A stretch of 64,000 bases of DNA from a candidate division WOR-3 bacterium (GCA_965648905.1 CBFGIT010000011.1:32557-96556); one strand, 5' to 3'; numbered from the stretch's first letter, positions 41,167-60,346 are shown. Notes: generated from the letters alone by a model not told the origin. Program-made: numbers and translations.

Positions 41167-43221
41167 ATGGCTCGACCAGCTTTGCTTGTCTCCGACGAGC
41201 CGGAACGAAATCCCGACCGGCTCAGATTCGGGTTCCCTTCTTACGCGCAGACGATAGTTGACCTGATTTCTCTGTCTGAAAACCGGACCCCATTGGTTAT
41301 CGCCATCTACGGTCAGTGGGGCGCGGGCAAGACGACGCTGATGCAGGCTGTGCTGGAGAGCAAGAGCCTGACCGAGGAGCGGCCCGGGCACCGGCGCTGC
41401 CGCTCGGTTAAGTTTGATGCCTGGCAGACCCGGGATGACGAGTCGGTCCTGACCGCGCTGGTTGAGGAGGTGTTCCGTACCATCCGGCAGAACGGGTTTG
41501 GCTGTCCGGAGCAGGAGCTGGTTGAGTTCCGGCGGCGCTATGGCGGAGCCAAGTCTTTGGGCCCGATTGCCCGCTATCTGCTGGCTGAGGGCGAAGTCGA
41601 GCTATTGGCCAATCCCGAGTACGAGGCGCAGCGGAGCCGGCTGCCCTATCTCTCTTCGTTCCGTCGGTTTCTTGACGACTTGATTGGGCTGTATGTCGAG
41701 GGCAAGCTGCCCGCAGCCAATGCCACGGTTGACGACCGTAAGGCCGCACTCGTCATCTTCATTGACGACCTGGACCGGTGCTCGCCGCGCAAGGTCGTCG
41801 AGGCCTTCTCCGGAATCAAGCTGTTTCTCGACCGGCCGGGCTGCGTGTTTGTGCTTGCCATGGATCAGGAGCGGGTCGAGTCGGCAATCCGGCTTGCCTA
41901 TGCTGACCGGACCGATACCGAGCAGACCTATGAGGCGGACAAGTTTCTGGATAAGGTGATTGACGTCAGTTTTACCCTGCCGCCGCTGAAACCGGAAGAG
42001 GCCGGCGAGTATCTTCAGGACTGGTGTCAGGGAATACCTGCGCTCAAGACGTACTCAGGACCGATTGTCGAGAGCCTTGGCCGCAACCCGCGCCGCATCA
42101 AGCGGCTGGTGAACGAACTGAATCTGACCCTGGCCCTGGCCGACGCAGCCGGGGTCGGCATCAGCGAGGAACATGCGGTCGCCTTCACGGTCCTGAAATA
42201 TGCCTACCGGGAATACTATCGCCAGCTTGAGGCTCAGCCTGACCTGCCCGAGCGGGTCGAACAGGCAGTTGCTCGGCTTGAAGCTGCGGGCGGGGCCCGG
42301 GTCGACGAGCTTGACCTGCGCTCAACCCCGATGCAGAGCGCGCTTTCCGGACTGTCAATCGAGGCGCCGATTGTCACGAATCCGGCTCTGCGCACGATTG
42401 TTCGTTCGCTGCCCAAGGACCGGTCGGTCGTACTGAGCTATCTTGCCCTGTCGCGCACCGCGACCTTCAAGGAAGACGAACTTGAGGGGCGGCGGCCTGA
42501 GGTTCGGGTTGACGGCGGTTTCGCGCGTATTGCTGCGGGCCGGTTCTTTTTCGGCCCGGACAAGCAGCCGCTGACGATTGACTATGACTACGAAATCGGC
42601 GTGTTCCCGGTGACGAACCGCGAGTACCAGGAGTTTATCAGTGCCAACCCGAATCACCGCGCACCTGGGGTCGAGGCCGAATGGGCCGAGGGTTACAACT
42701 GGCGCAGCCGGCGCTATCCCGAAGGCAAGGAACATCACCCGGTTGTGCTGGTCTCGCGTGAAGACGCATTGGCGTACTGCGCCTGGCGAACGCGCAACGA
42801 CAAAGAAGGTCTGCTCTGGCGCCTGCCCACTGAGCAGGAATGGGAAAAGGCAGCACGCGGCCCGGAAGGCAATGTCTTCCCTTGGGGCAACGAGATGGAC
42901 AAGAACAAGTGCAACTGTCGTGAGTCCGGCATCGGGGGAACCACACCGGTAACCAAGTACGGCAACGGCGTATCGTACTATGGCTGCTACGACATGGCAG
43001 GCAATGTCTGGGAGTGGTGTGAAGAACAGCCGATGCAGGCTGACCCACAGGCACCGCGTATCCTGCGGGGCGGTTCATGGGACGATGAGGCCGATTTTGT
43101 CCGCACCGACTATCGGTACCCGCAATATCCGTCCAACGTCTATATCAACGTCGGGTTTCGGGTGGTACGGGTCCGGCGGCAGGCTCCATCCGCAGCAGAA
43201 GCCGGGCCCAGACCGGCATAG
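41167..43221 (+). CDS. KAP family P-loop NTPase fused to FGE-sulfatase (C-type lectin fold) domain
   Basis: GQWGAGKT, VIFIDDLDRC, FLDKVID, NPRRIKRLVN; then RLPTEQEWEKAARG, DMAGNVWEW, RGGSW, GFRV. Confidence 0.9.
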   Translation: MARPALLVSDEPERNPDRLRFGFPSYAQTIVDLISLSENRTPLVIAIYGQWGAGKTTLMQAVLESKSLTEERPGHRRCRSVKFDAWQTRDDESVLTALVEEVFRTIRQNGFGCPEQELVEFRRRYGGAKSLGPIARYLLAEGEVELLANPEYEAQRSRLPYLSSFRRFLDDLIGLYVEGKLPAANATVDDRKAALVIFIDDLDRCSPRKVVEAFSGIKLFLDRPGCVFVLAMDQERVESAIRLAYADRTDTEQTYEADKFLDKVIDVSFTLPPLKPEEAGEYLQDWCQGIPALKTYSGPIVESLGRNPRRIKRLVNELNLTLALADAAGVGISEEHAVAFTVLKYAYREYYRQLEAQPDLPERVEQAVARLEAAGGARVDELDLRSTPMQSALSGLSIEAPIVTNPALRTIVRSLPKDRSVVLSYLALSRTATFKEDELEGRRPEVRVDGGFARIAAGRFFFGPDKQPLTIDYDYEIGVFPVTNREYQEFISANPNHRAPGVEAEWAEGYNWRSRRYPEGKEHHPVVLVSREDALAYCAWRTRNDKEGLLWRLPTEQEWEKAARGPEGNVFPWGNEMDKNKCNCRESGIGGTTPVTKYGNGVSYYGCYDMAGNVWEWCEEQPMQADPQAPRILRGGSWDDEADFVRTDYRYPQYPSNVYINVGFRVVRVRRQAPSAAEAGPRPA

Positions 43222-46627: not shown

Positions 46628-47311
46628 CTAGATCTGTTCCTCATCAAAGAAGAGGTTGACGTACTGAACCCCGGGCGTGCGGTTCAGGTCGCGGATGAAA
46701 GCATCGCCCTGTTCCTTGTGCTTGAGCCGGACATAGAAAGAAAGCTCAATCAGGTCGGTGTCACCGAGTGAGCGGACATTGACCGGAGTCACCTTAGAAC
46801 AATGGCCATCGAGGATCGCCTGGTAGGGCGGAACCCGGTCGCCGGTGTCGCGGTAGTTGAACTGGAGCAGGTAGTCGTCGCGCCGGGGCGTGGCGAACTT
46901 CCAGTTGTAGAGCAGCAGAATCACCAGTCCGATGCACAGGGTGCCGACGAGCGCAACGTCATAGAAGCCGACACCCGCGGCCATGCCGACGCCGAGAGCG
47001 AGGAACACGTAGACAATGTCCTGGGTGTTCTTGACCGCGTGGCGAAAGCGGACGACCGAAAGTGCACCAACCAGACCGAAGGCACGGGCTAGGTTGTTGC
47101 CGATGACCATGATGACGACCGCGGTTGCCATTGAAAGCAGGATGAGCGTATTGGTGTAGGCAACCGAGTAGCCCGGGCCACGGTAGGTCCGGCGGTAGGT
47201 CCACGCAATCGCCACGCCGCAGATGAACGCAACGGCAATCTTGACCGCCACCTGCGGCGCACTAACCGGCAGGAGCCGTAGCTCGCTGACAAGACCTCTA
47301 AGCGCTTCCAT
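46628..47311 (-). CDS. DUF4956 family membrane protein
   Basis: IGNNLARAFGLVGALSVVRFR..K...DIVYVFLALGVGMAAGVG signature; C-terminal ACT-like domain. Confidence 0.9.
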   Translation of the reverse strand: MEALRGLVSELRLLPVSAPQVAVKIAVAFICGVAIAWTYRRTYRGPGYSVAYTNTLILLSMATAVVIMVIGNNLARAFGLVGALSVVRFRHAVKNTQDIVYVFLALGVGMAAGVGFYDVALVGTLCIGLVILLLYNWKFATPRRDDYLLQFNYRDTGDRVPPYQAILDGHCSKVTPVNVRSLGDTDLIELSFYVRLKHKEQGDAFIRDLNRTPGVQYVNLFFDEEQI

Positions 47312-47356
47312 TAGACAGACCTTTCAGGACGATGAACGCCAGACTGCTGGCTGTAC

Positions 47357-48232
47357 TCAATTTGCCTCCTTACGGGGTTGAGATTGTCCGGCCTCAAGCA
47401 GGACACCGTCGACCCACGTCTCCAGCCGCCGTTTCTCCAGCGGCAGGGGGGAATCGGGGAACTCGACGGTGTGGCCGATGTTGCGCAGCTCTTTCTTCTC
47501 GACACGGTGGACTTCGATACCCAGTCCGAACTTGGAAAACGCCGTGCGCTGCAGGTCGAATCGCTGCACCACGCCGCGCACCCACTGAGGCAGGTTCATG
47601 TAGAACTTCACCTCGAAGACGAAGTGACCGGGAATGAGGAACTTGAGGTCACGGTCAACATAGAGCTCGGCGAGTCGCGGGTACAGCCGGCTGCGGATGT
47701 TGCGGTCAAAGGTAAGCCGGAGGCGCGGGTCGAACCGGCCGAAGAACGCCTCTCGTTCGTAGGCCACGAGCACCAGGGGCATCATCCGCCGTCGGTAGTA
47801 GTTGTAGAGGAACCGGCCGGCAGCTTCGGCCTCTGCAGAACCGGGCGCAAATGGCAGCTCAGAAGCAGGCCCGTATCCGGCAAAGACCTGCTCGATCCGG
47901 TCCCAGCGCACCGGTGCCCGGCTCTTAGAAATGAAGTCTTCCTGCTTGCGCTTGATTTCGAGGAAGACAGTGCTGTCCGGCCCGGGTTGGTTGTAGCCGC
48001 GGATGCGGAGTTTCTTCTTCAGCCGAAATCCGTCGAACTTCTCGTCGTAGCAGCCGAACCGCCGTGTGTCGTAGTAGATGCTGCGCACGGTGTACTGCTT
48101 AGCCGCGCACGACGCGCAGAAACCGTCGAGACAGACGTACGGCCGGAGCGCGGCCCGCAGCTCGGGCAGAAGCGACTTGGGCACGACGTACTTGTATTCA
48201 AGCCGACCCGAGACCAATGCTGTCGGATTCAA
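47357..48232 (-). CDS. VTC domain (CYTH-like) polyphosphate polymerase family protein
   Basis: RLEYKY, YTVRSIYYDT, KKLRIRGY, FLEIKRK, YEREAF, RLTFD, FEVKF, FSKF. Confidence 0.9.
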   Translation of the reverse strand: MNPTALVSGRLEYKYVVPKSLLPELRAALRPYVCLDGFCASCAAKQYTVRSIYYDTRRFGCYDEKFDGFRLKKKLRIRGYNQPGPDSTVFLEIKRKQEDFISKSRAPVRWDRIEQVFAGYGPASELPFAPGSAEAEAAGRFLYNYYRRRMMPLVLVAYEREAFFGRFDPRLRLTFDRNIRSRLYPRLAELYVDRDLKFLIPGHFVFEVKFYMNLPQWVRGVVQRFDLQRTAFSKFGLGIEVHRVEKKELRNIGHTVEFPDSPLPLEKRRLETWVDGVLLEAGQSQPRKEAN

Positions 48233-48235
48233 GCG

Positions 48236-49774
48236 CTATCGGCCGATGACCACCCGGCGCACGTCTGATTCTGACCGGACAAAGTAGACACCGGGCGCGA
48301 CCCGGCTGATGTCGTTTGCACCGCGTTGCAGGCAGAGCACTTCTCGCCCGCAAGCGTCAAGCATCTGGCCTCTGGTTCGGACAGCGAGCGGCAGCGCGCT
48401 CCGCAGCATCGTTGGTTCTGACCGGACACGGGGCGCGTCGAGCGCAATAACTTCCTGCACGCCGCCGGTCGGATAGCTGATTGTAGCGTAGTCCGTGCCG
48501 GTTCCTGAGCCGGCGCTTGCGCCGGTCACGTAGACCGCGCCGTTCTGCCCCAGCGCCAGAGCTGCTGCCTCGTCGTCACGGCCGGCCGGGCCGTCGTAGC
48601 GCTGAACCCACATCTCCTGCCCGATGCTGTTGTAGCAGACGGTCGCGTAGTCGGCGCGTGTGCCTGAGCCGGCGCTTGCGCCGGTCACATAGACGCTGCC
48701 TGCACGGTCGAGGCCAATCGCGCGGGCCTCGTCGAATCCGCTGGCCGGGCCATCGTAGCGTACCACCCAGGCCCGTGAACCGTCCGGGTTGTACTTGACC
48801 GTGGTGTAGTCGAAGTCGGTTGAGACACCAGTGCTTGCGCCGGTGACGTAGATGCAGCCGGCCTCGTCAACTGCAAGCGCATACGCCCAGTCCGGCCCAG
48901 ATGCCGGGCCATCGTAGCGTTCGGTCCAGATCACCTCACCCCCCGGGCCGTACTTGACGGTTAGAAAGTCCATGTTGGTCCCTGCGCCCATGCTCGCACC
49001 GGTGACGATGACGTTGCCGGCCTGGTCTACGGCGATCGCGCGGGCCTCGTCGTGTTCGTCAGCCGGCCCGTTGTAACGTCTGGTCCAGACCGTGTCCCCG
49101 TTTGACGCGTTGTACTTGATCGTGACATAGTCCCAGTTGAGCACGTATGGGCTGCCGGTGTTGCCGGCAGTGTAGACGTACCCCTGGTTGTCGGCCGCGA
49201 CTCCCACGCAGTAGTCCTCATCGATCGTCGAGTAGATGCTGGTCCAGGCTTCTGAGCCGGCCGGGTCATACTTGACCAGAAGCATCTCCCAAAACGTCGT
49301 GTCGCCCGCGGTGTAGCCTGCAGCGTAGACATTCCCCGCGTCGTCGGCCGCAAGTGCCAGACCGTGGTCGTTGCGGTTGCCCGGGCCATTGTACAGGGCA
49401 GCCCAGCGCTGGCCGCCGGTTGCGTCGTAGGAGACAGTGAGCATGTCGGTCCAGAGGCTCACGTCCGAACAACCACCGGTAACAAACACGTTCTCGCCCC
49501 GGGCAACGATCGCGCGCGCCTGGTCGTCGCCCTGCGCCGCGCCGTCGTAGCGCGCAGCCCAGAGCGACTCGCCACTCGGGGTGTAGGCAACGGTCAGCAG
49601 GTCATTGGCCGCAGTCGAACTCCAGCTCGAACCAGTGACACAGACATTGCCGGCGGCGGTGACGGCAATCCCACAGGCTCGGTCTTCGTCATTGGCCGGG
49701 CCGTTGTAGCGGGCAACCCAGGTCTGACTGAAGCCGAGTGCTAGAACGAAAAGAACCGAAAGCAAGACACGCAT
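48236..49774 (-). CDS. secreted SBBP-repeat beta-propeller with T9SS-like C-terminal domain
   Basis: Repeats WxxRYxGP..D.A.AIAVD.AG.VYVTG.S....DY.TxKY. Confidence 0.85.
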   Translation of the reverse strand: MRVLLSVLFVLALGFSQTWVARYNGPANDEDRACGIAVTAAGNVCVTGSSWSSTAANDLLTVAYTPSGESLWAARYDGAAQGDDQARAIVARGENVFVTGGCSDVSLWTDMLTVSYDATGGQRWAALYNGPGNRNDHGLALAADDAGNVYAAGYTAGDTTFWEMLLVKYDPAGSEAWTSIYSTIDEDYCVGVAADNQGYVYTAGNTGSPYVLNWDYVTIKYNASNGDTVWTRRYNGPADEHDEARAIAVDQAGNVIVTGASMGAGTNMDFLTVKYGPGGEVIWTERYDGPASGPDWAYALAVDEAGCIYVTGASTGVSTDFDYTTVKYNPDGSRAWVVRYDGPASGFDEARAIGLDRAGSVYVTGASAGSGTRADYATVCYNSIGQEMWVQRYDGPAGRDDEAAALALGQNGAVYVTGASAGSGTGTDYATISYPTGGVQEVIALDAPRVRSEPTMLRSALPLAVRTRGQMLDACGREVLCLQRGANDISRVAPGVYFVRSESDVRRVVIGR

Positions 49775-49775
49775 G

Positions 49776-51275
49776 TTACTCTCCTTTCACAATTCGCGCT
49801 GTTGCTGAGGCGGTAGCACTACTGCCTGTTGTCGCGCTGAGCTGAGCGAAATACACCCCGGGCGCCAGGTGATGCACGTCGTTGGCCCCGGGCGCAAGAT
49901 TCATTACCTTCCGGCCCAGCGCATCAGTGAGGATGCCGTGGAATTGCTGCGCGCCACGTCCCGGCTCGGGCAGCAACAGGTGGCCACGGACAATCGTCGC
50001 GAAGGGACGCGAACGTGTTACGCCGGGCGTTACTCGTTCCTCGTTACCGACCGCGAAGTCACGCGGGTACTTGAGCGCCCGGCCAATCTGACCGCCGGTG
50101 TTGTAGGTCCACACGACCTGACCGGCGGGTGTTACCTCGACCAGTCTGCTCGCCGTTCCGAGCGTAGCCATGGTGTTGCCGTTGGGCAGTCGGTAAGCCC
50201 CGCCAAGATGCTGGGCGTAGAAGGCCGAGCCATTCTGGTATGTCCAGGTCGGCGCGGTCGGACCGAAGGCTGAATCCGGGTGAATGTAATAGTGGTCCTC
50301 GGAGTCGAGCGGCGCGGTGATTTCAGTAATCACCGAGTAATCGTTACTGCTTCCTGGCCGGTCACCGTTGTTGAGCACCAGGATGTTACCGGCACCGGGC
50401 ATACCTGGTTTGACCCAGTTGCCGCCGTGGATAACATAGAATACGCGATCAGCCGACGTACCCCGGCCGTAGTTCTGCGGGTTGCCCCAGCGGTAAAGGA
50501 TATCGCCGCCTTTGCCGTGCCGGCCACCGGTCGAGCCCCGCGCTTCTTCGGTTGTCGTCGAGTGGTCGATGACGTAAATCTCGTGCAGGTTGTGTGAGGT
50601 CAGGATAATCTCGTCCCGTTCTTCGTTGTAGTCCACAGTGTTGCAGTGCATCCAGTCCCCGCCCATCACGGTGCCGAGGTTGATATTCAGTCGCTCGGGG
50701 TGGTCACGGATGACACCGTAGTTGGGTTTGGATGGGTCAACGTCCTGAATCAGGTGGTCCCAGAAGTGCCACTCCCAGACAACCGAGCGCGTGACCGGAT
50801 CCCATTCGACGACCTCATCCGGCCAGATATCGCCGGTGATGCCTTGCCGGCCCAGCGATTCAGCCTGCGCCCGGGTCTTTCTGTCCCAGGACACGACTAG
50901 CACATGACCGTTGGGCATCGGGTGGATGTCGTGGTGCTGCTGGTGGTAAGCGTTGGACCAGATGAAGCTCTCGATAACGTTGCCGTTCCAGTCATAGTGT
51001 TCAATCAGGCCTCCGTACGCCGCGCCACGCATGGTTGCCCCGGAATAGACACCAGGCCGCCACATCGTCGAGTCGGGCATCAGGTAAGGAACGTACGAAA
51101 CCCCGGAGTTGCAGTTCCAAGTGTTTACTGTCTGGCCGTCGTTCGTGACCAGCCGGCAGGTCCGGTTGCTCATTACATTAACCAACGTCAGCCCGTCATA
51201 GACCTGTGCGACGATGAGCGTCGGCAGGCACAGCGAGACCAGCGTCAGTACCGGGGCGATGTTGCTTCTCTTCAT
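49776..51275 (-). CDS. aryl-sulfate sulfotransferase-like protein with T9SS-like C-terminal domain (copy 3)
   Basis: HHDIHPMPNG, WEWHFWDH, DWMHCN, IDHSTT, ILYRWGNP, RLPNGNT. Confidence 0.85.
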   Translation of the reverse strand: MKRSNIAPVLTLVSLCLPTLIVAQVYDGLTLVNVMSNRTCRLVTNDGQTVNTWNCNSGVSYVPYLMPDSTMWRPGVYSGATMRGAAYGGLIEHYDWNGNVIESFIWSNAYHQQHHDIHPMPNGHVLVVSWDRKTRAQAESLGRQGITGDIWPDEVVEWDPVTRSVVWEWHFWDHLIQDVDPSKPNYGVIRDHPERLNINLGTVMGGDWMHCNTVDYNEERDEIILTSHNLHEIYVIDHSTTTEEARGSTGGRHGKGGDILYRWGNPQNYGRGTSADRVFYVIHGGNWVKPGMPGAGNILVLNNGDRPGSSNDYSVITEITAPLDSEDHYYIHPDSAFGPTAPTWTYQNGSAFYAQHLGGAYRLPNGNTMATLGTASRLVEVTPAGQVVWTYNTGGQIGRALKYPRDFAVGNEERVTPGVTRSRPFATIVRGHLLLPEPGRGAQQFHGILTDALGRKVMNLAPGANDVHHLAPGVYFAQLSATTGSSATASATARIVKGE

Positions 51276-51305
51276 GCTCGAGCCTCCTCTTCGGTCATGT
51301 TTTCT

Positions 51306-52763
51306 CTACTGTGCCAGCAAAACCTTTGTGGTTTGGCCGCCTTCGCGGACAAAGTACACCCCTGGCGAAAGACCGCGGACGTTATTGACGCCCGGTTCGA
51401 GCCTGAGCACGCGCCGGCCGCCGGCATCGAGCAAGGCCGAACTCCGAAAATCGAATGGCGAGTTGATGTGGAGGACGCTACGGGCGATGCTCGGGCCCGG
51501 CGTGTGGCGTACCGCGTGCGGCTTATCGGCTTCGGCCGCTCCGGTCGCGAAATCGCGCGGGTACTTGATTGCCCGGCCATTCCAGGCCGACGTCATCCGC
51601 TGCCAGACAACCCGGCCGTCATAGGTTACCTCAAACAGACGGCCGCTCACCGCCTCAGTGATGAAAGTATTGCCGTTCGGCAGCCGGTACGCGCCGGACA
51701 TATGGCCGGAGTAGAACACGCCCCGGTTCTCATAGGTCCAGCTCGGCTCCGCCGGGCCAAAGGCTGAATCCGGGTGAATGTAGTAGTGGTCGTTTGAATC
51801 AAGGGGCGGCGTAATTTCCCAGACACTGGAGTAGTCGTTGGCACTGCCCGGCCGATCACCGTTGTTGAAGACCATGATATTGCCCTCGCCGAGCAGACCG
51901 CGCCGAATCCAGTTCGCACCATGGACCACAAAGAAGCGCTGGTCGGTCGAATCTCCGCGGCGATAGTTCTGCGGGTTACCCCAGCGGTACAGGATATCGC
52001 CGCCTTTGCCGTGCCGGCCACCGGTGTGACCAGCCGCCTCTTCGGTCGTGGTCGAATGGTCGATGACGTACAGTTCGTTCAGGAAGTGCGAGCTGAAGAC
52101 GATCTCGTCCCGCTCTTCGTTGTAGTCAACGATGTTGGCGTGAATCCAGTCGCCGTACATGAAGAGCGTGCCAAGGTTGATGTCAAACAGCTCAGGATGG
52201 TCGCGGACCACACCATAATTCGGCTTGGTCGAGTCAACATCCTGTATCAGATGGTCCCAGGCCCGCCAACGCCAGACCACGCTGTCACAAATCGGGTCGT
52301 ACTCGACGATTTCCTCAGACCACATGTCACCGGTGACATTGATGCGGCCCATGGCCTGAGCCTCGGTTCGAGTCTTACGGTCCCAGGAAAGCACCAGGAT
52401 ATTTCCGTTGGGCATTGGGTGAATGTCGTGGTGCTGCTGGTGGTTTGAGTCCGACCAGACAAAACTCCGGATGATATTACCGTTCCAGTCATACTGACGA
52501 ATCCAGCCGCCGTAGACCCCGCCGCGCATGACCGCACCCGGATACACGTCCGGCCGCCAGATAGTTGAATCCGGCATCAGATAGACCGTATAGGCAGGCG
52601 TGGTCGAGCAGTTCCAGGAGTTGACCAGTTGGCCGTTGGTGTCAATCAACGACACGGTCCGGCTGTAAACCGGGTTAGAGATAACCAAGCCATCAAAGAC
52701 CTGCGCAGTCAGCAACGCCGGCAGGAAAACAAAGAGTAAGGTCAAACCGCTTTTCTTCATCAT
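51306..52763 (-). CDS. aryl-sulfate sulfotransferase-like protein with T9SS-like C-terminal domain (copy 2)
   Basis: HHDIHPMPNG, DWIHAN, IDHSTT, ILYRWGNP, RLPNGNTFITE. Confidence 0.85.
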   Translation of the reverse strand: MMKKSGLTLLFVFLPALLTAQVFDGLVISNPVYSRTVSLIDTNGQLVNSWNCSTTPAYTVYLMPDSTIWRPDVYPGAVMRGGVYGGWIRQYDWNGNIIRSFVWSDSNHQQHHDIHPMPNGNILVLSWDRKTRTEAQAMGRINVTGDMWSEEIVEYDPICDSVVWRWRAWDHLIQDVDSTKPNYGVVRDHPELFDINLGTLFMYGDWIHANIVDYNEERDEIVFSSHFLNELYVIDHSTTTEEAAGHTGGRHGKGGDILYRWGNPQNYRRGDSTDQRFFVVHGANWIRRGLLGEGNIMVFNNGDRPGSANDYSSVWEITPPLDSNDHYYIHPDSAFGPAEPSWTYENRGVFYSGHMSGAYRLPNGNTFITEAVSGRLFEVTYDGRVVWQRMTSAWNGRAIKYPRDFATGAAEADKPHAVRHTPGPSIARSVLHINSPFDFRSSALLDAGGRRVLRLEPGVNNVRGLSPGVYFVREGGQTTKVLLAQ

Positions 52764-52796
52764 GCCTCCTAAGTACGCGGTTCCATGGCATAGCCC

Positions 52797-54251
52797 CTAC
52801 TTGGTCAGCAACACCCGGGCCGTGTGTCCGTCAGCACGCACGAAGTAGACGCCCGGAGTGAGTGCGGCCAGGAAGTTCGTGCCATGCTCAAGGTCGACTA
52901 CATGCCGGCCGCAGGCATCGAGCAAGGGCAGATTCATGCTTTCGGAAGACGAGTTGAGGTTGAGGACGCCGCGGACAATGGTCGGGCCCGGCGTGTGGCG
53001 TACCGCGTACGGCGTATAGCCTTCGTCTGCTCCGGACGCGAAGTCACGCGGGTACTTGGTTGCTCGTCCGACCTGGCCACCCGTGTTCAGTGTCCAGACG
53101 ACCTGGCGAGCTGGCGTGATTTCGTAGACCATCCCGGTTGTGCCCAGCACGGCAAGCGTGTTGCCGTTGGGCAGTCGGTAAGCCCCGCCCAGGTGCTGGG
53201 AGTAGAACGAGCAACCGTTCGAGTAAGACCAGGTCGGAGTCCGCGGGCCGTAGGCCGAGTCCGGATGAATGTAGTAGTGGTCATTGGCATCAAGCGGCGG
53301 GGTTATCTGGACAACCGACGAGGAATCGCCTGATGTTCCGGGCCGGTCACCGTTGTTCAGGACCAGGATATCTCCGGCACCGAGCATTCCCGGCCGTATC
53401 CAGTTTCCGCCGTGGGCGACGAAGAAAACCTGGTCTGCTGCTGTTCCCCGGCGATAGTTCTGCGGGTTGCCCCAGCGGTAGATGAAGTCCCCGCCTTTGC
53501 CGTGCCGACCGCCGGTCGAACCCCGCGCCTCTTCAGTTGTCGTCGAGTGGTCGATGACGTAGATTTCGTGCAGGTTGTGTGATGTCAGAATGATTTCGTC
53601 CCGTTCCTCGTTGTAGTCCACGGTGTTGCAGTGCATCCAGTCACCGCCCTGAACCGTGCCGAGATTGATATCAAGCCGCTCCGGATGGTCACGAATGACG
53701 CCATAGTTCGGCTTGGTCGGGTCAACGTCCTGAATCAGGTGGTCCCAGAAGTGCCATTCCCAGACTACGCTTCGGCTCACCGGGTCCCATTCAATGACTT
53801 CGTCCGGCCAGATATCACTGGCGATGTTCCGTCGGCCCAGTGATTCGGCCTGTGCCCGGGTTTTTCTGTCCCAGGATACTACCAGCACATGGCCGTTAGG
53901 CATGACGTTGATATCATGGTGCTGCTGGTGATTCGAGTCCGACCACAAGAAACTCTCAATCAGGTCTCCGCGCCAGTCGTAATGCGCCATCAGGCCGCCA
54001 TAGGGCCCGCCGCGCATCACTGACCCGGGCCAGACTTCCATGCGCCAGACCGTGCTGTCCGGCAGCAGATAGGCCATGTAGCAGGGATAGGTGGACGTCC
54101 ACGAGTTGACCACGCGGCCGGAGTTATCTTTGAGGTAGGTAGTACGGTTGTTGATGAGGTTGTAGAGCGTCAAGCCGTCGAGCACCTGGGCGGCTGCTAC
54201 AACCGGGAGAAGTACCCATGCTGCAAGCGCAGCGGTTCGGGAGTCCATCAT
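52797..54251 (-). CDS. aryl-sulfate sulfotransferase-like protein with T9SS-like C-terminal domain (copy 1)
   Basis: HHDINVMPNG, DWMHCN, IDHSTT, FIYRWGNP, RLPNGNT. Confidence 0.85.
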   Translation of the reverse strand: MMDSRTAALAAWVLLPVVAAAQVLDGLTLYNLINNRTTYLKDNSGRVVNSWTSTYPCYMAYLLPDSTVWRMEVWPGSVMRGGPYGGLMAHYDWRGDLIESFLWSDSNHQQHHDINVMPNGHVLVVSWDRKTRAQAESLGRRNIASDIWPDEVIEWDPVSRSVVWEWHFWDHLIQDVDPTKPNYGVIRDHPERLDINLGTVQGGDWMHCNTVDYNEERDEIILTSHNLHEIYVIDHSTTTEEARGSTGGRHGKGGDFIYRWGNPQNYRRGTAADQVFFVAHGGNWIRPGMLGAGDILVLNNGDRPGTSGDSSSVVQITPPLDANDHYYIHPDSAYGPRTPTWSYSNGCSFYSQHLGGAYRLPNGNTLAVLGTTGMVYEITPARQVVWTLNTGGQVGRATKYPRDFASGADEGYTPYAVRHTPGPTIVRGVLNLNSSSESMNLPLLDACGRHVVDLEHGTNFLAALTPGVYFVRADGHTARVLLTK

Positions 54252-56512
54252 CTTGCCACAATCAGTTTGACGGTCTCGACCAGTTCGGCCCGATTAGCGC
54301 AGGCCGATTCCAGTGTCGCGAAGTAGACGCCGCCCGACTGCCCGGTAATGACGAAGCTCACTTCGTGTTGGCCAGGCGTCTGGTTGCCATCAACGACTGT
54401 CGCGATCAACCGGCCGGTAGCGTCGTACACCCGCAAGGCGACCTGGCTTGGCTGGGCAATGGTGAAGCTGAGCACGGTGTGCCGGGCAAACGGGTTCGGG
54501 TGCGCGGTCAGTTGAGCAGGCGATACTGAGAAGTGCCTCTCCTCCACTCCGACCGCGCTGTCGTTAGGAGCTCGGAACGTCGGGTTCATCAGCCGGAAGG
54601 TGCCGAACCCGTCCGGGTAGCGGCCGAAGCTCACGTCCGGCTTCTGGGGCCCGAATACTGCCAAGTCCTGCCTGAAACCGTCCGGGTCGGTGAGAAAGAC
54701 CATCTCTCCGGACGAATTGAGCCGGAAGTTGGCATGCAGCCCGCGCTGAGTCAGGTCGCTATCAGCCCAGACTACGACATAGCCATTGGCCGGAATCACT
54801 GAGTCTGGGAACTCCCATTTGAGCCGGTTGAGCGAGTCATCGGACAGAAAGTACCCGTCGAGCGAAATCGGCCGCGCGGTGGTGTTCCGCAGCTCAATCC
54901 AGTCGTCATACTGGCCCGAGGGGTCAGGCATGGTCCGGACGTTCTCAGCCATCAGTTCATTGATGACAACGCCACCTGTCACCGGTAGAACGAAAGTCTG
55001 GTATTCAGCCCGGGGCGGATAGAAGACCCCGGCCTCAGTGTTCTCGGCATAGATGTAGTACTCCAGGTTGCCAGCGCCGACACGGAGTGTAACAGCATAC
55101 AGGCTGTCATTGGCCGCACCGTCATCGTGCTCGCCGTCATCGTACATCACGGCTCGGGTGAACCGCAGCGCCGGATTCTGGCGATACCCAAGAAAGACTG
55201 AATCTGCAGCCGAGACCCGCGCCTCGAACCGGACACTTGTGTTCGGTGCTGGGCGGGGCGGGCTGGTGGTTATCTCAGACACCGAGGGTTGAGCAGCCTG
55301 GAACTCGGGCCGGCGCAAAAGGAAGCTGACCCGGCCGTTCATCAGCTCGGTCAGGCCGACGATCGCGAGCGGCCCGGAGCCGACCGAGCGGGTGACGTTG
55401 TTGGTGAAGTCGTTGTAAGAGTAGAACTTGTTCGGGTCAGCCCGAACGTGCGCGTCGATTATCTCCTGTATCTCGTAGGCCCGGTCCCGATACCAGTTGT
55501 TCTCAAGTACATCAGCGACCATTGTCTTCATGTGCGCGATGAACATCCGGCGGCGCCGGGCATCGTTGAAGACCATGGACAGAATCGGGTAATCCGGGTC
55601 GGTCGAGCGCAGAAACGGATCGAGCTGCTGCATCTGCACCAAGGACAGTTGCCCGGTTCCCTGCAAGTCCCGGAACGCACCAAAGCTCTCGTTCAAGTCC
55701 CAGACAATCGGGTTAAACCGGGCCGAGGCATCGCGGTACAGGTAGTAGTTCTGGGCGGTGTTGATTGGAGCGTCGAGGTTGACCAGAAGGATATCGAAGG
55801 CAAGCATCCAGAGGTGCCGGTCGGTGTCGAGAATCAGGTCGAGCGCCGAATTGCAATTGCTGAGCATGTCCAGAAGACCAATCAGCTCAGGCCAGCCCGT
55901 GCGGGACTCGAGCTCGAAGTAAGCGAGATAGGGGGTCGATTCAGGGCCCAGGTACTTCCAGCCCATCATTGCCACCGAGTCGAACCTCACTCGACCCTTG
56001 AACCGGGCGTTCTCATCACAGTAGAAGTGGGTGCGCATGAACGCCTTGTCCGGGTCTTCGTTGTTGGTGTAGAGGCCGATGAGCGTGTCGTTGACGTAGA
56101 CATTGGCGTAGTTCGAGCGTCCAGCCGGCATGTACTTGCGCGCGATTTCGTAGCTTAAGACCTCGCGCACAAAGCTCGGGTCTTTGTAGACATTGGCCAG
56201 GCGCAGGGTGCCGTGGCCCTCGATGTTGGCGCCCGGCCTTACGTAGTCGAGCTTGATGTTGAACGGGTTCTTGCGCCGGCTTGGGTTGTAGGAACTGAAG
56301 CCCTTGTACCTGACCCCGACGCTGTCGAACCGGACGCCATTGACGAACGCGGTGCCGACCAGCCGTCCTTCCTCGCCCGCCGCGTAAAGACTGTCAAGAA
56401 TCTCGTCCCAGTTGGACTCAGCGAAAACCAGTCTGATTTCATTCACCTGCTCGACGTCAAAAAAGCCGGCAACTGCGGCCGTGACGAGGAGCGCGAGCAG
56501 GCAGCATCTCAT
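54248..56512 (-). CDS. secreted CotH kinase family protein + lamin tail domain + T9SS type A domain
   Basis: GVRYKGFSS, REVLSYEI, GLY, NLD...NYYLY, WDLNESFG; VVINELMAEN..DWIELRN; HPNPF..VYDATGRL..GVYF. Confidence 0.9.
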   Translation of the reverse strand: MRCCLLALLVTAAVAGFFDVEQVNEIRLVFAESNWDEILDSLYAAGEEGRLVGTAFVNGVRFDSVGVRYKGFSSYNPSRRKNPFNIKLDYVRPGANIEGHGTLRLANVYKDPSFVREVLSYEIARKYMPAGRSNYANVYVNDTLIGLYTNNEDPDKAFMRTHFYCDENARFKGRVRFDSVAMMGWKYLGPESTPYLAYFELESRTGWPELIGLLDMLSNCNSALDLILDTDRHLWMLAFDILLVNLDAPINTAQNYYLYRDASARFNPIVWDLNESFGAFRDLQGTGQLSLVQMQQLDPFLRSTDPDYPILSMVFNDARRRRMFIAHMKTMVADVLENNWYRDRAYEIQEIIDAHVRADPNKFYSYNDFTNNVTRSVGSGPLAIVGLTELMNGRVSFLLRRPEFQAAQPSVSEITTSPPRPAPNTSVRFEARVSAADSVFLGYRQNPALRFTRAVMYDDGEHDDGAANDSLYAVTLRVGAGNLEYYIYAENTEAGVFYPPRAEYQTFVLPVTGGVVINELMAENVRTMPDPSGQYDDWIELRNTTARPISLDGYFLSDDSLNRLKWEFPDSVIPANGYVVVWADSDLTQRGLHANFRLNSSGEMVFLTDPDGFRQDLAVFGPQKPDVSFGRYPDGFGTFRLMNPTFRAPNDSAVGVEERHFSVSPAQLTAHPNPFARHTVLSFTIAQPSQVALRVYDATGRLIATVVDGNQTPGQHEVSFVITGQSGGVYFATLESACANRAELVETVKLIVAR

Positions 56513-56524
56513 GCCGAAGTGCTC

Positions 56525-57535
56525 CTACTTTCTGGTCCGGTTCGCCCGGGCCGGGGTCGGCAGCAGGAACTGCCAATCCGGGCCACCATCAGGCAGCCGG
56601 CCGAACGAGGTGTCGGGCTTCTGCGGTCCGAAGCTGAGCGTGTCGACAATCAGGGCGTGCGTGCCGTACTTCTCAAACAGCCCGAGTTGCTCGCCCCGGG
56701 CAGCAGCGAGGTTGAATGAGGCATGGAACTGACCCTCTTCCTCTTCGCCGTCAGCCCAGATAAGCTGGTAGCCGTGCGCGGGAATCGTGACGTCCGGCAG
56801 AGTCCAGCGCGTCGGCTGCCTCAGGTCATCGGTCAGGGTGAACCCACGCAGGGTCACAGCCGTGTCCGCAGCGTTGTAGAGCTCGACCCAGTCGTCGTAG
56901 TCCCCAGCCTCGTCGGTGTTGATCGTCTGGTTCGAGGCAAGGAACTCGTTGATGAAGACTATTCCGGCCAGGGACGAGACAGCCGATGTGTTCGGCTCGC
57001 CCGGAGTCGGCACAGACAAAAGCTGCCAGTTGCCCCCATCCGGAACCCGGCCGTACGAAGTGTCAGAACGCTGCGGGCCAAAGCGCATGGTGTCGACGAT
57101 GAAGACCCGGTCGCCATGAGAAGTGAAGAGACCCAGTTCCTCGCCCTGGCTGGCGCTGAGCCGGAACGAGGCATGCAAAGGTCCTTGACGGTACTCCCCG
57201 TCAGCCCAGATAAGCAGATGGCCGTGCGCGGGAATCGTCGTGTCCGGAAAAGTCCACTTCATCGGCCGCGCCAGATTGTCGGTCAGGTACATCGGCTTCA
57301 GGCGAACCGGAGCATTGCCGGCGTTGTACAACTCAATCCAGTCGGCATACTCGCCGTTCTCATCCGGCAGGGTGGACTTGTTCGATGCCATTACTTCGTT
57401 GATGAACAGCACGCCCGCCAGGGGCGATAGCTCGGTTATGGCCGGAGCAGCGTCACAACCGCCAACCAGCGTAACAAGTACCAACCCAATGCACATCTTC
57501 GCTGCCAACTCGCCACCTTTCCTTGTTCGTCTCAT
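56525..57535 (-). CDS. lipoprotein with two lamin tail domains
   Basis: Lipobox LVGGC; two INExxASN..DW(I/V)ELYN..S(Y/F)GRxPDG..PTP domains. Confidence 0.85.
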   Translation of the reverse strand: MRRTRKGGELAAKMCIGLVLVTLVGGCDAAPAITELSPLAGVLFINEVMASNKSTLPDENGEYADWIELYNAGNAPVRLKPMYLTDNLARPMKWTFPDTTIPAHGHLLIWADGEYRQGPLHASFRLSASQGEELGLFTSHGDRVFIVDTMRFGPQRSDTSYGRVPDGGNWQLLSVPTPGEPNTSAVSSLAGIVFINEFLASNQTINTDEAGDYDDWVELYNAADTAVTLRGFTLTDDLRQPTRWTLPDVTIPAHGYQLIWADGEEEEGQFHASFNLAAARGEQLGLFEKYGTHALIVDTLSFGPQKPDTSFGRLPDGGPDWQFLLPTPARANRTRK

Positions 57536-57542
57536 GTCATCC

Positions 57543-58499
57543 TCAGAACCCGGCCTGCGCCTGCACCATGACCTTGTGTCCAGCCTCCTCTGCCGGCTCC
57601 AACTTCGAGACCAGATTGACCTTCAACTCAAGCCGTCGACGGAGATGCCAGTTGCAGGCTGTGGTCACCGCAGTCGTTTGGTCAAACCGGTCACCTGGGT
57701 CTGGATAGAGCTGCTCGAACTTGAGTCCGGGTTCGAATGCACCCAGCCGGTAGAAGCCCTGAACGTACCAGCCGAGCATTTTGGTATCCGGCTCAGCCTG
57801 ACCCAGAAGCACTTCGGCCTCGACCGTTGCGCAGCCGGTTCGAGAGGCCAGGTCTCCGCCCCAAGCCAGCATCTTCTTCCCAGTCAGCGAGTCATTGCGC
57901 TGGCTGGCATTGACTCCAAGCACAAGCCGTGACCAGGGCGAGAAGGTCAGTCGCTCGCAGAACTGCTTGGCGTCGTTCCAGTCGCCGGCCCGCTTGGTGC
58001 CGTTGCCGTTGAACACGCCCAGGGAGTAGCCCACCGGCATCAGGCGGTGAAACAGCTCGCCCTCGACTGCCAGGCCGATGTCGCGGCCCAGATAACCGAC
58101 ATCGCCAAACGCATTGTTCATCTCGCTCCGCTCAATGGTCAGCAGCCTGCTGGCCGGGGTCAGTTCCTCGTGGCTGAAAGGCATCTTGCGCAGACCGGCT
58201 ACCAGCGCGAGCGGGGCCGCAACCTGATGGCGGATGAAAGCATCCTTGAGGGTCAGGTCCAGCTCATCACAGCCAATCTCAATCTCGACTGCGGCCCGGT
58301 CCAGGTCGTAGCAGAACTCAACCCGACCGCGCCGGAGTTCAAACCCGTGGCGCGGAAAGGCACCGGAGCGGAAGTCGTACATCCACTGGACATGGACATA
58401 GCCGCCGAACGAGAACCCATCTTGGCCCTTAGGCCGCGCGGCCGCAGCCGACCCGACCAGCGCCAGCACGAAAAAAAGCAAATCAGCCGGTCTACGCAT
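57543..58499 (-). CDS. outer-membrane porin (OprO/OprP phosphate-selective porin-like)
   Basis: Signal peptide; FELRRGR, LKDAFI, G..KMPFSHEE, IERS, RDIG, GVFNGNG; terminal F. Confidence 0.78.
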   Translation of the reverse strand: MRRPADLLFFVLALVGSAAAARPKGQDGFSFGGYVHVQWMYDFRSGAFPRHGFELRRGRVEFCYDLDRAAVEIEIGCDELDLTLKDAFIRHQVAAPLALVAGLRKMPFSHEELTPASRLLTIERSEMNNAFGDVGYLGRDIGLAVEGELFHRLMPVGYSLGVFNGNGTKRAGDWNDAKQFCERLTFSPWSRLVLGVNASQRNDSLTGKKMLAWGGDLASRTGCATVEAEVLLGQAEPDTKMLGWYVQGFYRLGAFEPGLKFEQLYPDPGDRFDQTTAVTTACNWHLRRRLELKVNLVSKLEPAEEAGHKVMVQAQAGF

Positions 58500-58569
58500 C
58501 AAGCTGTCTCCTTAGACACCAGGGGCCAAGGCTTACTGCGGCTCGATTGTGAAGACACTGCTAAATCTT

Positions 58570-58616
58570 AGCAAAGAACATGCCGTCCAAGCAAGTTCTG
58601 CTCTAGATGAGGGTTG
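58570..58616 (-). promoter_or_regulatory. sigma54-type promoter with adjacent IHF-like site
   Basis: Minus strand CGGCATGTTCTTTGCT = GG-N10-GC; CAA-N19-TTG at 58592-58616 just upstream. Confidence 0.55.
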
Positions 58617-58694
58617 GGTTGATTCGAAGTCGGTCTGTCCGGCTCAGGCTGACCATGACTGAACGATGGCGTCCACCGGGCCGCAGGAAGGCAC

Positions 58695-60080
58695 TCAGCG
58701 CAGAATCACGACCTGACTTACCCAGCTTCCCTCAGCAGTTGTGAGGACGACCTTGTACACCCCCGCGGGCAGGCTCGGTGCTGACCAATACGCCCGGTGT
58801 TCGCCCGGCTTCAGGCTTCGGTTCAAGAGCTCGACTGACGCCCTGCCGGTCACGTCATGGATGGCCACACGGGCAGGCCCGGTTCGGACTGTTCTCAGAA
58901 CCAGCCGTGCTGTACCGCGTGCGGGCGAGGGTGTCACCTCAAGCACTGGTTGCGCGACATGTGCGGGGCGGCCTTCGCCCACGCCCGGCTTCCGGGCTGT
59001 GCAGAAAAACGGGTCAAACACCGTGCCGTCGGGCTGCACTGCCTGGCAGAAAACCGAGTCACCATGCACATCGACCTGAACGAACTCATAGCAGGTGAGC
59101 CGGAACAGAGTCCACGGCTCAGGCTCGAGCCAGTCCCAGTAGAGCGGTGCACCACCACCGCCACTCGTGACGTAGTGAACCCCATTCACCAGGCTGCGTT
59201 CGTAGGCGTGGATGTGACCGCAGAAAACGATGCTGACACCAAACCGCTCAAACAGCGGGCTAAGGTACTCGCGAACCTGAAGGTTGCTCGGATGAGCAGC
59301 ACTGGTTGTGTACGGTGGTTCGTGAAGCGAGACGAATACGTGCCTGACGGTTGAATCGGCACTGTCGGCCCGCAGCTCCGACTCAAGCCAGGAGTACTGC
59401 TCTGAACCTGGTTCGAAAGCCTCGTACACATTCACGGCATGGACCGCGGCGCTGCCGAGCCGGACCGAGTAGAACCGTTCGTTCCCTGGCAGCAAAAAGA
59501 AGCGATACCAGTTGTCCATACTGCCCAGGTCATGGTTGCCCAGTACTGGGAACGAGGGCACGCAAGCCAGGAGGTTCTGCTCGACACGAAAGAAGGTCTG
59601 ATACTGGGCCCAGGTGGCGTTCTCGGTCAGGTCCCCAGTGTGCAGTACGACCAGCGGCAGCGGCATGCAGGCAGTTATCTGGTCAACGACGCTCTGATGA
59701 GCAGCGCTGTCGGTCCGGGTATCACCGATGACCGCGAACCGGACCGGGCATCCTCGAGCCGGCGCAGAACGGAACACTGCATCCGGGCTTGAGTCCGGCC
59801 CGGCCACAACCCGGTAGTGATACTGTGTGTCCGGGATAAGCCCGGTCAGGACCAGCTCGTGGATTGTGTCCGGCTCGGGCCGCGTGACCGAAAGACCGTA
59901 CTCAGCAGACAGACCGTACTCGACCAGCGCCGACTCCATGGTTGCGGTCTCCCAGCGCACCACGACGCTCGAATCGGTCAGGCTCTGCAGGTACGGGTAG
60001 AAAGTGAACTCGGCCCACGCCGTAGTGCCGACCAGCGCAGACAGCAGAACCAGTCGCGCCGACAGGCGCAAAAGTCCCAC
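58695..60080 (-). CDS. secreted purple-acid-phosphatase-like metallophosphoesterase with T9SS type A domain
   Basis: FN3-like N-domain; GDTR, HTGDL, LGNHD, HEPPY, GHIHAYER, SGGGGA. Confidence 0.88.
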   Translation of the reverse strand: MGLLRLSARLVLLSALVGTTAWAEFTFYPYLQSLTDSSVVVRWETATMESALVEYGLSAEYGLSVTRPEPDTIHELVLTGLIPDTQYHYRVVAGPDSSPDAVFRSAPARGCPVRFAVIGDTRTDSAAHQSVVDQITACMPLPLVVLHTGDLTENATWAQYQTFFRVEQNLLACVPSFPVLGNHDLGSMDNWYRFFLLPGNERFYSVRLGSAAVHAVNVYEAFEPGSEQYSWLESELRADSADSTVRHVFVSLHEPPYTTSAAHPSNLQVREYLSPLFERFGVSIVFCGHIHAYERSLVNGVHYVTSGGGGAPLYWDWLEPEPWTLFRLTCYEFVQVDVHGDSVFCQAVQPDGTVFDPFFCTARKPGVGEGRPAHVAQPVLEVTPSPARGTARLVLRTVRTGPARVAIHDVTGRASVELLNRSLKPGEHRAYWSAPSLPAGVYKVVLTTAEGSWVSQVVILR

Positions 60081-60094
60081 CGCGCAGCCCTGGT

Positions 60095-60346
60095 CTAGTT
60101 CCCGGGTGCGCGATAGACTGTCACCGAACGGATGCTCTCCGGGTCCTGACCGGCGCGTCCGAACAGGTCTTCAACCGCCTTACGGTCGGACGCGTCCCAG
60201 CAACAGATCGGCTGGTTCGTGCTGTTGTCCACGTATGCCCAGTCCATCTTGAGACTGGTTCCTTCGGCTGCGGAGACGACCTTGAAACAGGCGATTTTCA
60301 CCTGCTCGGCTGACATCGGCTTCAGCGTGATGATGAACTTGGCCAC
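60095..60346 (-). CDS. small protein, DUF4242/SCO4226-like
   Basis: RBS AAGGAG and own promoter; W.YVD..ICCWDA...AV......G..P.SI..V pattern. Confidence 0.6.
   Translation of the reverse strand: MAKFIITLKPMSAEQVKIACFKVVSAAEGTSLKMDWAYVDNSTNQPICCWDASDRKAVEDLFGRAGQDPESIRSVTVYRAPGN

Follow-up and report, generated by a model that had tools for sequence, protein, structure and literature searches.

A co-inherited nine-gene run in a WOR-3 bacterium combines a Vtc4-like enzyme and DUF4956 with a porin and exported CotH and ASST-like proteins: a candidate polyphosphate delivery operon

PPK1 and PPK2 are the enzymes held responsible for the synthesis of polyphosphate (polyP) in bacteria. In this study, a stretch of 64,000 nucleotides from a candidate division WOR-3 bacterium (GCA_965648905.1, CBFGIT010000011.1:32557-96556; hereafter the window, to which positions refer unless a contig is named) was found to carry a run of nine minus-strand genes with a different candidate polyP enzyme near its end. 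The run encodes, from first to last, a porin, a lamin-tail domain (LTD) lipoprotein, a CotH-family kinase, three ASST-like propellers, an SBBP-repeat propeller, a VTC-type enzyme and a DUF4956 membrane protein. It is real and inherited as one unit, and it reads as an optional envelope operon, putatively controlled by a sigma factor of the extracytoplasmic function (ECF) type, in which a Vtc4-like enzyme is joined to a membrane partner, a lipoprotein, a porin and exported enzymes. The best single explanation is that polyP is made and delivered or exported to the envelope, a tentative choice to which we give somewhat less than even confidence. This core idea is not unique to the locus, and its support is genomic.

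Results

The nine genes form one inherited unit

Named homologues with 93%, 59% and 56% identity assign the host to candidate division WOR-3. The nine open reading frames (ORFs) lie in the order and tight spacing given by a preliminary description of this DNA. They encode an outer-membrane barrel of the Porin_O_P family (57543-58502, 319 amino acids (aa)), a lipoprotein with two LTDs (56525-57535, 336 aa), a CotH-family kinase with an LTD and a tail of the type IX secretion system (T9SS), type A (54248-56512, 754 aa), ASST-like propellers 1 to 3 (52797-54251, 51306-52763 and 49776-51275; 484, 485 and 499 aa), a secreted SBBP-repeat beta-propeller (48236-49774, 512 aa), a VTC-type triphosphate tunnel enzyme that would be a cytoplasmic candidate polyP polymerase (47357-48232, 291 aa) and a DUF4956 inner-membrane protein (46628-47311, 227 aa). 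Intergenic distances from porin to DUF4956 are 7, 12, -4, 33, 30, 1, 3 and 45 bp. The domain labels of the preliminary description were likewise upheld by Pfam hidden Markov models (HMMs), all nine proteins passing the cut-off of the named family (PF07396, E 5e-11; PF00932 twice, E 8e-26; PF08757, E 7e-33, accompanied by PF00932 and TIGR04183 above cut-off; Arylsulfotrans, E 5e-17, 3e-16 and 8e-18 for copies 1 to 3; PF06739, E 5e-17; PF09359, E 6e-36; PF16316, E 3e-16). VTC, DUF4956, CotH and the porin are each present in a single copy in the genome. The G+C content of the region is even at 0.59-0.64 and does not indicate a recent island. A scan for sigma-70 promoters and terminators stayed at chance level (4 promoters against 2.6 expected, 11 terminators against 10.0). 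A Pfam scan of the run and the DNA flanking it gave no pel-like gene, pel having been looked for there and not in the remaining genome.

To place the run among its relatives, 41 genomes were compared, comprising the host genome, 24 of its family and 16 of its order. VTC was found in 13 of them, CotH in the same 13, and a porin orthologue in exactly these 13 as well (E <=2.7e-76; next match 1.7e-7). ASST matches with E <1e-175 were confined to the 13 VTC-positive genomes, and a weaker band appeared in 9 of the 12 VTC-negative family members; because the ASST profile was built from operon copies, these score bands arise partly by construction, and the tree presented below is the better test. Co-conservation of the porin and ASST genes with VTC and CotH, on which the preliminary description had made its proposal depend, is thus seen within the WOR-3 family of the host. 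Two genera are each split, with the set present in one genome and missing from the other. Seven of the 12 VTC-positive relatives show the order porin-LTD-CotH-ASST(1-3)-SBBP-VTC-DUF4956 whole on one contig, and in the remaining 5 the genes, though divided among contigs, agree with it, which argues against a chance arrangement. The number of ASST copies varies from one to three among family loci, and the SBBP gene directly precedes VTC in all 11 family loci with upstream DNA present.

The VTC protein retains the polymerase residues of Vtc4

A profile of 78 VTC homologues gave 10 PDB matches, all of them Vtc4, Vtc2 or Vtc3 (best E 7e-12). According to the available text of a study on yeast (10.1101/2023.01.27.525886), polyP synthesis depends critically on nine Vtc4 residues. 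Profile alignment places all nine in the window protein, with K14, R76, R78, K94, Y158, R160, E207, S233 and K234 corresponding to Vtc4 K200, R264, R266, K281, Y359, R361, E426, S457 and K458, and each is kept in 77-78 of the 78 homologues; the C-terminal block with E426, S457 and K458 is a weak second stretch of this alignment. K234 represents the residue that the inactive Vtc2 and Vtc3 lack. The suggestion of a Vtc4-type catalytic core in the preliminary description therefore finds agreement at the residue level.

Compared with the yeast VTC complex (Vtc4/Vtc3/Vtc1; PDB 3g3q, 7ytj, 8i6v), the likeness lies in a tunnel domain with the complete set of polyP-synthesis residues and in a membrane partner with conserved basic residues, here encoded next door. 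In yeast, however, an SPX domain and a membrane segment are fused to the catalytic domain, whereas the WOR-3 protein is a stand-alone VTC domain with neither SPX nor any hydrophobic segment; Glu12 takes the place of Vtc4 Thr198; and the yeast complex has no counterpart of the porin and the exported enzymes.

In triphosphate tunnel metalloenzyme (TTM) hydrolases, acidic residues form a patch that takes up a second metal, a feature missing from Vtc4, as stated in the accessible part of PMC4641920. Two of the three second-metal Glu positions in the window protein are basic as in Vtc4 (R10 and K209). These positions are presumed to correspond to E2, E4 and E171 of AtTTM3, a mapping that we take from the ExExK motif. 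The active-site residues lean to a polymerase and leave mixed activity possible. A quite unlikely alternative is that the outside enzymes receive from VTC and DUF4956 not a long polymer but a small molecule, namely ATP, a nucleotide product, pyrophosphate or tripolyphosphate, as phosphoryl donor or signal, VTC being a transferase or hydrolase of mixed type. The hybrid active site R10-x-E12-x-K14 would suit such a role, as would the nucleotide site of CotH, which keeps its Trp and both Asp, and a porin that would be better suited to small anions than to long chains; however, K234 and the basic exit residues R10, K103, R172 and K209 match a polymerase, and the adaptor duct of relatives described below is not needed for small solutes.

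PPK1, PPK2 and PPX (Ppx-GppA) had no match in the host genome, which is 99.6% complete, in searches whose controls gave signal. Among the 41 genomes PPK1 occurs in 3, all VTC-positive, and is absent from 10 of the 13 VTC-positive genomes. VTC as a simple replacement of PPK1 was rejected, since every PPK1-positive genome also carries VTC.

DUF4956 appears MgtC-like and carries conserved basic residues

The structural model of DUF4956 (pLDDT 92) comprises an N-terminal helix, five more helices over residues 18-137 and an ACT-like domain. The ACT part matches 2lqj (Z 8.3) and 7qa5 (Z 8.2), other ACT folds scoring equally well, and MgtC C-terminal domains are among the matches. MgtC (PF02308) was matched weakly (E <=0.1) by 80 of 81 DUF4956 members, the window protein falling below the cut-off (25.4 against 31.4), and DUF202 was matched by none of the 81. 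Fold searches with the whole protein and with the membrane domain alone returned no Vtc1, Vtc3 or Vtc4 chain and nothing above noise (best Z of the membrane domain 8.3), which does not exclude a likeness. Judged by profile and model, DUF4956 appears MgtC-like, and no resemblance to Vtc1 was detected. The comparison to the Vtc channel drawn in the preliminary description was accordingly not supported: the channel partner in yeast is Vtc1 (DUF202), whereas the partner in WOR-3 appears to be an MgtC-like domain joined to an ACT domain.

Conserved charged residues of DUF4956 include R76, R88, R90, K94 and D98. R88 is present in 118 and R90 in all 119 of 119 diverse homologues, and K94 and D98 are nearly invariant. 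The yeast VTC channel is lined by basic residues, according to the available text of PMC9911596, and a basic pore in DUF4956 is thus possible by analogy, not descent. The family is large, with 5908 DUF4956-like clusters at 50% identity, and annotated VTC/DUF4956 pairs in bacteria number in the thousands.

Relatives place an HlyD-type adaptor, not a porin, beside VTC and DUF4956

The survey was widened to the best 80 of 240 VTC loci in the genome collection. DUF4956 directly follows VTC in all 80 and CotH lies within 10 kb of VTC in 38. ASST, SBBP and the porin are near VTC in 9, 7 and 5 loci, respectively, the porin count having been made with a WOR-3-based profile that may miss distant barrels. 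In 70 of the 80 loci VTC is immediately preceded by a member of a single family of ~355 residues. HlyD_3 was matched by 15 of 37 scanned members of this family, 10 of which passed the cut-off, and the family profile matches MacA, AcrA and EmrA. The common form in the FCB group is an HlyD-type adaptor-VTC-DUF4956 triad. No pump gene recurs beside the triad, and no TolC-like family was present in at least 3 of 76 clustered wider loci, as scanned in 21 of 26 listed clusters and 5 single genes. A periplasmic adaptor before VTC that is accompanied by no recurring pump gene points to transport across the envelope, and nothing else hints as strongly at outward transport as its occurrence in 70 of 80 relatives.

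The fixed core is VTC-DUF4956, usually with CotH, and the outer-membrane part is exchangeable. The preliminary description had made co-conservation of the porin and ASST genes with the VTC-DUF4956-CotH trio a condition of its proposal. In the wider loci neither is the usual partner: a porin occurs in 5 against an adjacent adaptor in 70, and ASST lies near VTC in 9 of 80. The closest VTC and DUF4956 relatives, at 39-48% identity, come from the adaptor triad of the FCB group, which CotH-LTD-T9SS proteins often adjoin. The difference is that the adaptor is gone from the WOR-3 family loci and that the ECF promoter motif described below is essentially absent from the triad (1 of 71 adaptors). No publication on the triad was found in literature searches on bacterial VTC and DUF4956. 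Both WOR-3 and Stahlbacteria loci are without the adaptor, and weak adaptor matches in the host genome all fall within ordinary ABC efflux operons. One locus (L034) combines the porin cassette with the adaptor, in the order porin-LTD-CotH-ASST x3-SBBP-adaptor-VTC-DUF4956, and is likely a bridge between the two forms.

The occurrence of the core extends to cultured organisms. Of 14 control genomes, VTC and DUF4956 both matched those of B. thetaiotaomicron, C. glutamicum and M. acetivorans and no others, and all three also have CotH. Three wider loci (L047, L055 and L084) have a PPK2 gene adjoining the module, where it comes straight after DUF4956 or CotH. Other neighbours were also recorded: an SdiA-regulated or phytase-like propeller lies near the VTC-DUF4956 pair in 9 loci, and Cthe_2159 in 4. 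Eleven loci, mostly from Ignavibacteria (L042, L043, L045, L048, L050, L058, L074, L077, L078, L082 and L094), place adaptor-VTC-DUF4956 beside a glucan-use cluster with PorV-like, GH16/malectin and GH3 genes, mostly with CotH downstream.

Porin, lipoprotein and CotH supply the predicted outer parts

The porin scored 42.8 bits against the Porin_O_P cut-off of 20.9 over residues 82-205, and NCBIfam ExtI stayed below its cut-off. Seven of its residues (R57, R58, K106, R125, R140, K179 and R184) are invariant in 15 orthologues. Profile search returned no solved structural relative, and no alignment to a solved OprO/P was obtained. The protein is a predicted outer-membrane barrel with a Porin_O_P domain and a putative phosphate porin. 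In the LTD lipoprotein, the lipobox Cys is present in 10 of 10 distinct stand-alone LTD orthologues, a count that leaves out duplicate loci and two CotH fragments, and its domains share 41-45% identity with the LTD of CotH.

The CotH profile matches B. cereus CotH (5jd9) with E 3.8e-32; single-sequence PDB searches with CotH and with ASST copy 2 returned nothing, relatives emerging with profiles only. The catalytic residues Asp247 and Asp272 (Asp228 and Asp251 in B. subtilis) are kept, both Asp being present in 36 of 36 rows, which agrees with the earlier designation of a kinase-type protein. An adenine-stacking Trp is found at the nucleotide site of CotH, as given in the available part of 10.1101/469122; Trp271 stands at this position in the window protein and Trp or Tyr in all 36 rows. 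This suggests that CotH still binds an adenine nucleotide and fits ATP better than polyP as the direct donor. The earlier proposal that CotH uses polyP as donor is therefore doubtful, and it would be the weakest step even given polyP synthesis and DUF4956 export. The Bacillus kinase shares both catalytic Asp and the adenine-stacking Trp; unlike it, the WOR-3 protein has a signal peptide, an LTD and a T9SS tail, the host is non-sporulating, and no gene for a CotB/CotG-like substrate lies in the run.

T9SS-type export of these proteins is likely, as judged from their tails and from the host genome, in which SprA-like (SprA_N) and PorV-like proteins matched over cut-off. The CotH tail is the only one in the operon above the T9SS type A cut-off (26.8 against 23 bits); one ASST tail reached 16 bits, while for SBBP and the two remaining ASST copies the tail had no match. 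Of the T9SS export proposed in the preliminary description for CotH and ASST together, the CotH part is upheld by its tail, and for the ASST-like proteins it would be putative. About 146 ORFs in the genome have a tail like that of CotH by a profile built for this analysis, mostly below the TIGR04183 cut-off, and the SBBP protein carries the common C-terminal sorting-like tail of the genome. GldN was not found in the host genome in a search whose control gave no signal either; together with the SprA-like and PorV-like proteins, this may point to a reduced T9SS.

The ASST-like proteins form one clade with an altered anion site

The three ASST-like proteins are 60-69% identical to each other. Despite remote similarity to E. 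coli AssT (EcAssT; PDB 3elq; profile E 0.016), His112, His207, Asn209 and His280 of copy 1 align by MAFFT with EcAssT His252, His356, Asn358 and His436, the His356/Asn358 pair being aligned by HMMER as well. His436 is the nucleophile and Arg374 a sulfuryl ligand, as described in the available text of PMC13426309. In copy 1, His225 replaces Arg374, and copies 2 and 3 have the same residue pattern. The WOR-3 copies further differ from EcAssT in the absence of the N-terminal sandwich domain and in having no DsbL/DsbI genes beside them.

His at the Arg374 position was found in all 3 window copies, 31 of 34 operon-clade rows and 116 of the 120 best homologues, and both non-operon ASST paralogues of the host genome have Arg there. 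A quick maximum-likelihood tree of 59 domains, which left out the duplicate loci L026-L029 and fragments of <300 residues, united the operon ASSTs of WOR-3, Stahlbacteria and two further lineages in one clade of 34 (SH-aLRT 99). At this position 19 of the 23 non-operon ASSTs show Arg, 3 show His and one shows Met. The change to His as a strict marker of VTC linkage was rejected on account of these three His-bearing non-operon proteins. It is new here for operon ASSTs, and the changed anion site fits a changed donor, without proving one and without being exclusive to VTC loci. Copy 2 and copies 1/3 fall in different, old subclades common to several genera, indicating that the triplication was not one recent event. 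In some operon-clade ASSTs at two loci, L126 (G013:C17) and L125 (G008:C57), the residue that corresponds to Arg374 is Arg, Asn or Phe; long branches carry two of these proteins, which are possibly diverging extra copies.

It is possible, though on the unlikely side, that the functional unit consists of VTC, DUF4956, CotH, the LTD lipoprotein and the porin only, the ASST and SBBP proteins being ordinary exported cargo that entered the operon a single time and was passed on as passengers under its promoter. This could hold together with polyP delivery, with the supply of a small donor or with the inward phosphate handling considered below. It would accord with the ~146 similar tails, the two further ASSTs and the many SBBP paralogues elsewhere in the genome, with the variable ASST copy number and with the scarcity of ASSTs near VTC in the wider loci. 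Nevertheless, the operon clade is found in VTC-positive genomes only while reaching Stahlbacteria and two further lineages, a separate His-type ASST pair on its own branch lies beside VTC-DUF4956-CotH in Zixibacteria (L098), and all catalytic His are kept.

A predicted ECF-type promoter heads the run

Aligned DNA upstream of the porin gene revealed a motif of CGCAG, 16 bases and GTGTCTAA. In the window, the predicted promoter (58512-58543, minus strand) has its -35 element CGCAG at 58540-58536 and its -10 element GTGTCTAA at 58519-58512, 10 bases 5' of the porin start. The pattern is present in 13 of 14 porin-upstream regions, a count that is circular as the pattern was drawn from the same alignment; leave-one-out scores ranged from 10.3 to 23.9, and the score of the window site was reached by none of 2000 shuffles. 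A scan of the genome supplied the independent test: an equal-scoring site lies between the genes of an ECF sigma factor and a zinc-finger (zf-HC2) anti-sigma factor (L134, G000:C33:15521-17124), with a Metal_resist-like gene (below cut-off) after the anti-sigma gene. A further site precedes a TonB-like OMP_b-brl_3 receptor gene (L135, G000:C7:45429-47923).

In relatives, motif scores of at least 13, which at most 0.34% of shuffles reached, were counted upstream of three genes. Of 25 family loci, 12 have such a site before sigma and 20 before anti-sigma, and of 30 loci with the TonB-like gene 22 have one before it; in other families none of 5 anti-sigma genes has one. A matrix built from 58 sites without the host genome ranked the operon (25.9), TonB-like (25.8) and anti-sigma (25.3) sites as the top three of the genome, the next-best site (19.9) lying inside a gene. 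All 24 family genomes examined have sigma and 23 of the 24 have the TonB-like gene, so that the operon appears as an optional member of a small family-wide regulon. One predicted ECF-type promoter would thus head the run and be common to the sigma/anti-sigma locus, and it is the first regulatory handle found for VTC/DUF4956 pairs in the literature searched. The motif as a general property of the module was rejected, being found outside the family before 1 of 71 adaptors, 1 of 48 CotH, 0 of 9 ASST and 0 of 2 porin genes. A fourth intergenic site, with a score of 17.0, was observed at G000:C44:8337 before the gene of a 533-aa secreted protein.

The sigma locus resembles the ECF281 and ECF111 groups, which the available text of PMC7826278 links to metal or envelope stress, in having sigma, a one-helix zinc-finger anti-sigma at +1, a Metal_resist-like gene at +2 and the -10 element GTCTAA. 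The -35 element of these groups is GGAACTT or TTGAACCT, whereas that of WOR-3 is CGCAG(G), the comparison being made to the group descriptions in that text and not by HMM. CGCAG(G) fits neither description and may mark an undescribed ECF group.

These observations bear on another, unlikely explanation, namely that the run handles phosphate inward. The exported enzymes would free or re-route outside phosphate (or sulfate), the porin would import it and nothing would be exported; DUF4956 would be an MgtC-like regulator or anchor, and VTC would store cytoplasmic polyP, which would also bind metal in stress. The MgtC-like membrane domain with its ACT-like domain, the porin family known for uptake, the missing PPK1 in 10 of 13 VTC-positive genomes, the ECF281/ECF111-like layout and the TonB-like receptor under the same promoter motif are consistent with this. 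However, the gene before VTC codes for an efflux-type adaptor in 70 of the 80 wider loci, PPK1 and VTC occur together in all three PPK1-carrying genomes, CotH is a kinase family, not a hydrolase, and the two PstS homologues lie elsewhere and not under the operon promoter motif.

Neighbouring genes

A gene for a secreted FN3 and calcineurin-like metallophosphoesterase (58695-60080, minus strand) sits 192 bp upstream of the porin gene. Its C-terminal tail scored 20.4 bits against the T9SS type A cut-off of 23. It has Glu at what we take to be the Tyr ligand position of purple acid phosphatases, which leaves the label "acid phosphatase" unproven. Its membership in the unit was rejected, as it is found upstream of the porin in 0 of 12 relatives, 4 of which give only 1.1-2.1 kb of DNA there, and the promoter-like site between the two genes again places it outside. 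Of the secreted acid phosphatase noted just upstream in the preliminary description, a secreted phosphoesterase is indeed there, but its acid type is unproven and it stands apart from the operon. An 83-aa ORF farther upstream (60095-60346, minus strand), with a weak match to the nickel-responsive SCO4226 and a sigma-70-like site at 60397-60370, is probably co-transcribed with the phosphoesterase gene. On the plus strand, a KAP-family P-loop NTPase fused to an FGE-sulfatase-like domain (41131-43221), possibly concerned with defence or signalling, is preceded by RNase T-like exonuclease and MraZ-like genes.

Discussion

The neighbourhood of VTC, DUF4956 and CotH has been seen before. As far as the available texts go, a set of cotH, 'poly-phosphate polymerase', DUF4956 and DUF4832 genes accompanies Gram-positive pel operons (10.1101/768473), the trio is present in C. 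perfringens NELoc-2 (PMC2879425), and it also appears as table entries in two transcriptome papers. No functional study of the trio was found in the literature searched, most subscription journals being outside its coverage, which agrees with the statement in the preliminary description that the neighbourhood recurs without a demonstrated function. Compared with the pel set and NELoc-2 as described in those texts, the WOR-3 run likewise unites the three core families in one series of genes; in contrast, its host is a diderm, no pel, DUF4832 or glycosyltransferase gene lies in the run, and it has in addition a porin, a lipoprotein with LTDs, SBBP and ASST-like proteins, and a predicted promoter of ECF type. 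What is new at this locus is the strict presence/absence pattern, the predicted ECF promoter with its sigma locus and the variant ASST active site, as read from sequence comparison.

For the delivery of polyP to the envelope, the following course may be envisaged. Under envelope or metal stress, the zinc-finger anti-sigma factor would release sigma, which would fire the promoter at 58540-58512. VTC would polymerise polyP from ATP, a step that we consider probable. Given this, there is a slightly better than even chance that VTC is docked to a DUF4956 oligomer, whose Arg/Lys cluster would guide the chain across the inner membrane. The host family would have lost the HlyD-type adaptor of its relatives, and the polymer would be released into the periplasm, handled by the LTD lipoprotein and let out through the porin, probably as short chains. 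At the surface, the T9SS-type exported CotH and the His-variant ASST-like proteins would modify a surface acceptor or load it with phosphoryl groups, CotH most likely still using an adenine nucleotide.

Several points weigh against polyP delivery. Most outer parts are replaceable, given the counts of porin, ASST and CotH in the wider loci, and the HlyD-type adaptor is absent from this locus. Of the 78 homologues, 77 keep Glu12 of the hydrolase ExExK motif, where Vtc4 has Thr. Import of anions is the normal role of OprO/P-type porins, and MgtC of Salmonella, which DUF4956 resembles, reportedly acts as a regulator promoting phosphate uptake through PhoR. CotH retains its adenine-stacking Trp271. 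Three of 23 non-operon ASSTs, from VTC-negative genomes, show His for Arg374 as well, and it is missing from 3 of the 34 members of the operon clade. No exopolyphosphatase that would account for the fate of any polyP was found, and no assayed bacterial VTC protein was found in the literature searched. Finally, the host-family genomes are kin, and the 13-genome pattern may equal one gain with several losses.

A bolder form of the proposal, very unlikely as a whole, would make the run a third bacterial polyP route with export. Under envelope stress, a Vtc4-like polymerase in split form would work with a channel of MgtC fold to drive polyP out of the cytoplasm, the WOR-3 porin would replace the adaptor duct, and the His-type ASSTs would be polyP-fed phospho-histidine phosphotransferases beside CotH on the surface.

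The question on which this locus bears is how kinases outside the cytoplasm obtain their phosphoryl donor. It sharpens the test of polyP export, as PPK and PPX are not detectable in the genome, the fixed and exchangeable outer parts (adaptor versus porin) can be told apart, and a single residue change in the ASST-like proteins can be named. The core trio of B. thetaiotaomicron, C. glutamicum and M. acetivorans makes it testable in cultured hosts. A PPK-independent, export-coupled route to polyP would be important if true, and it is now cheap to test.

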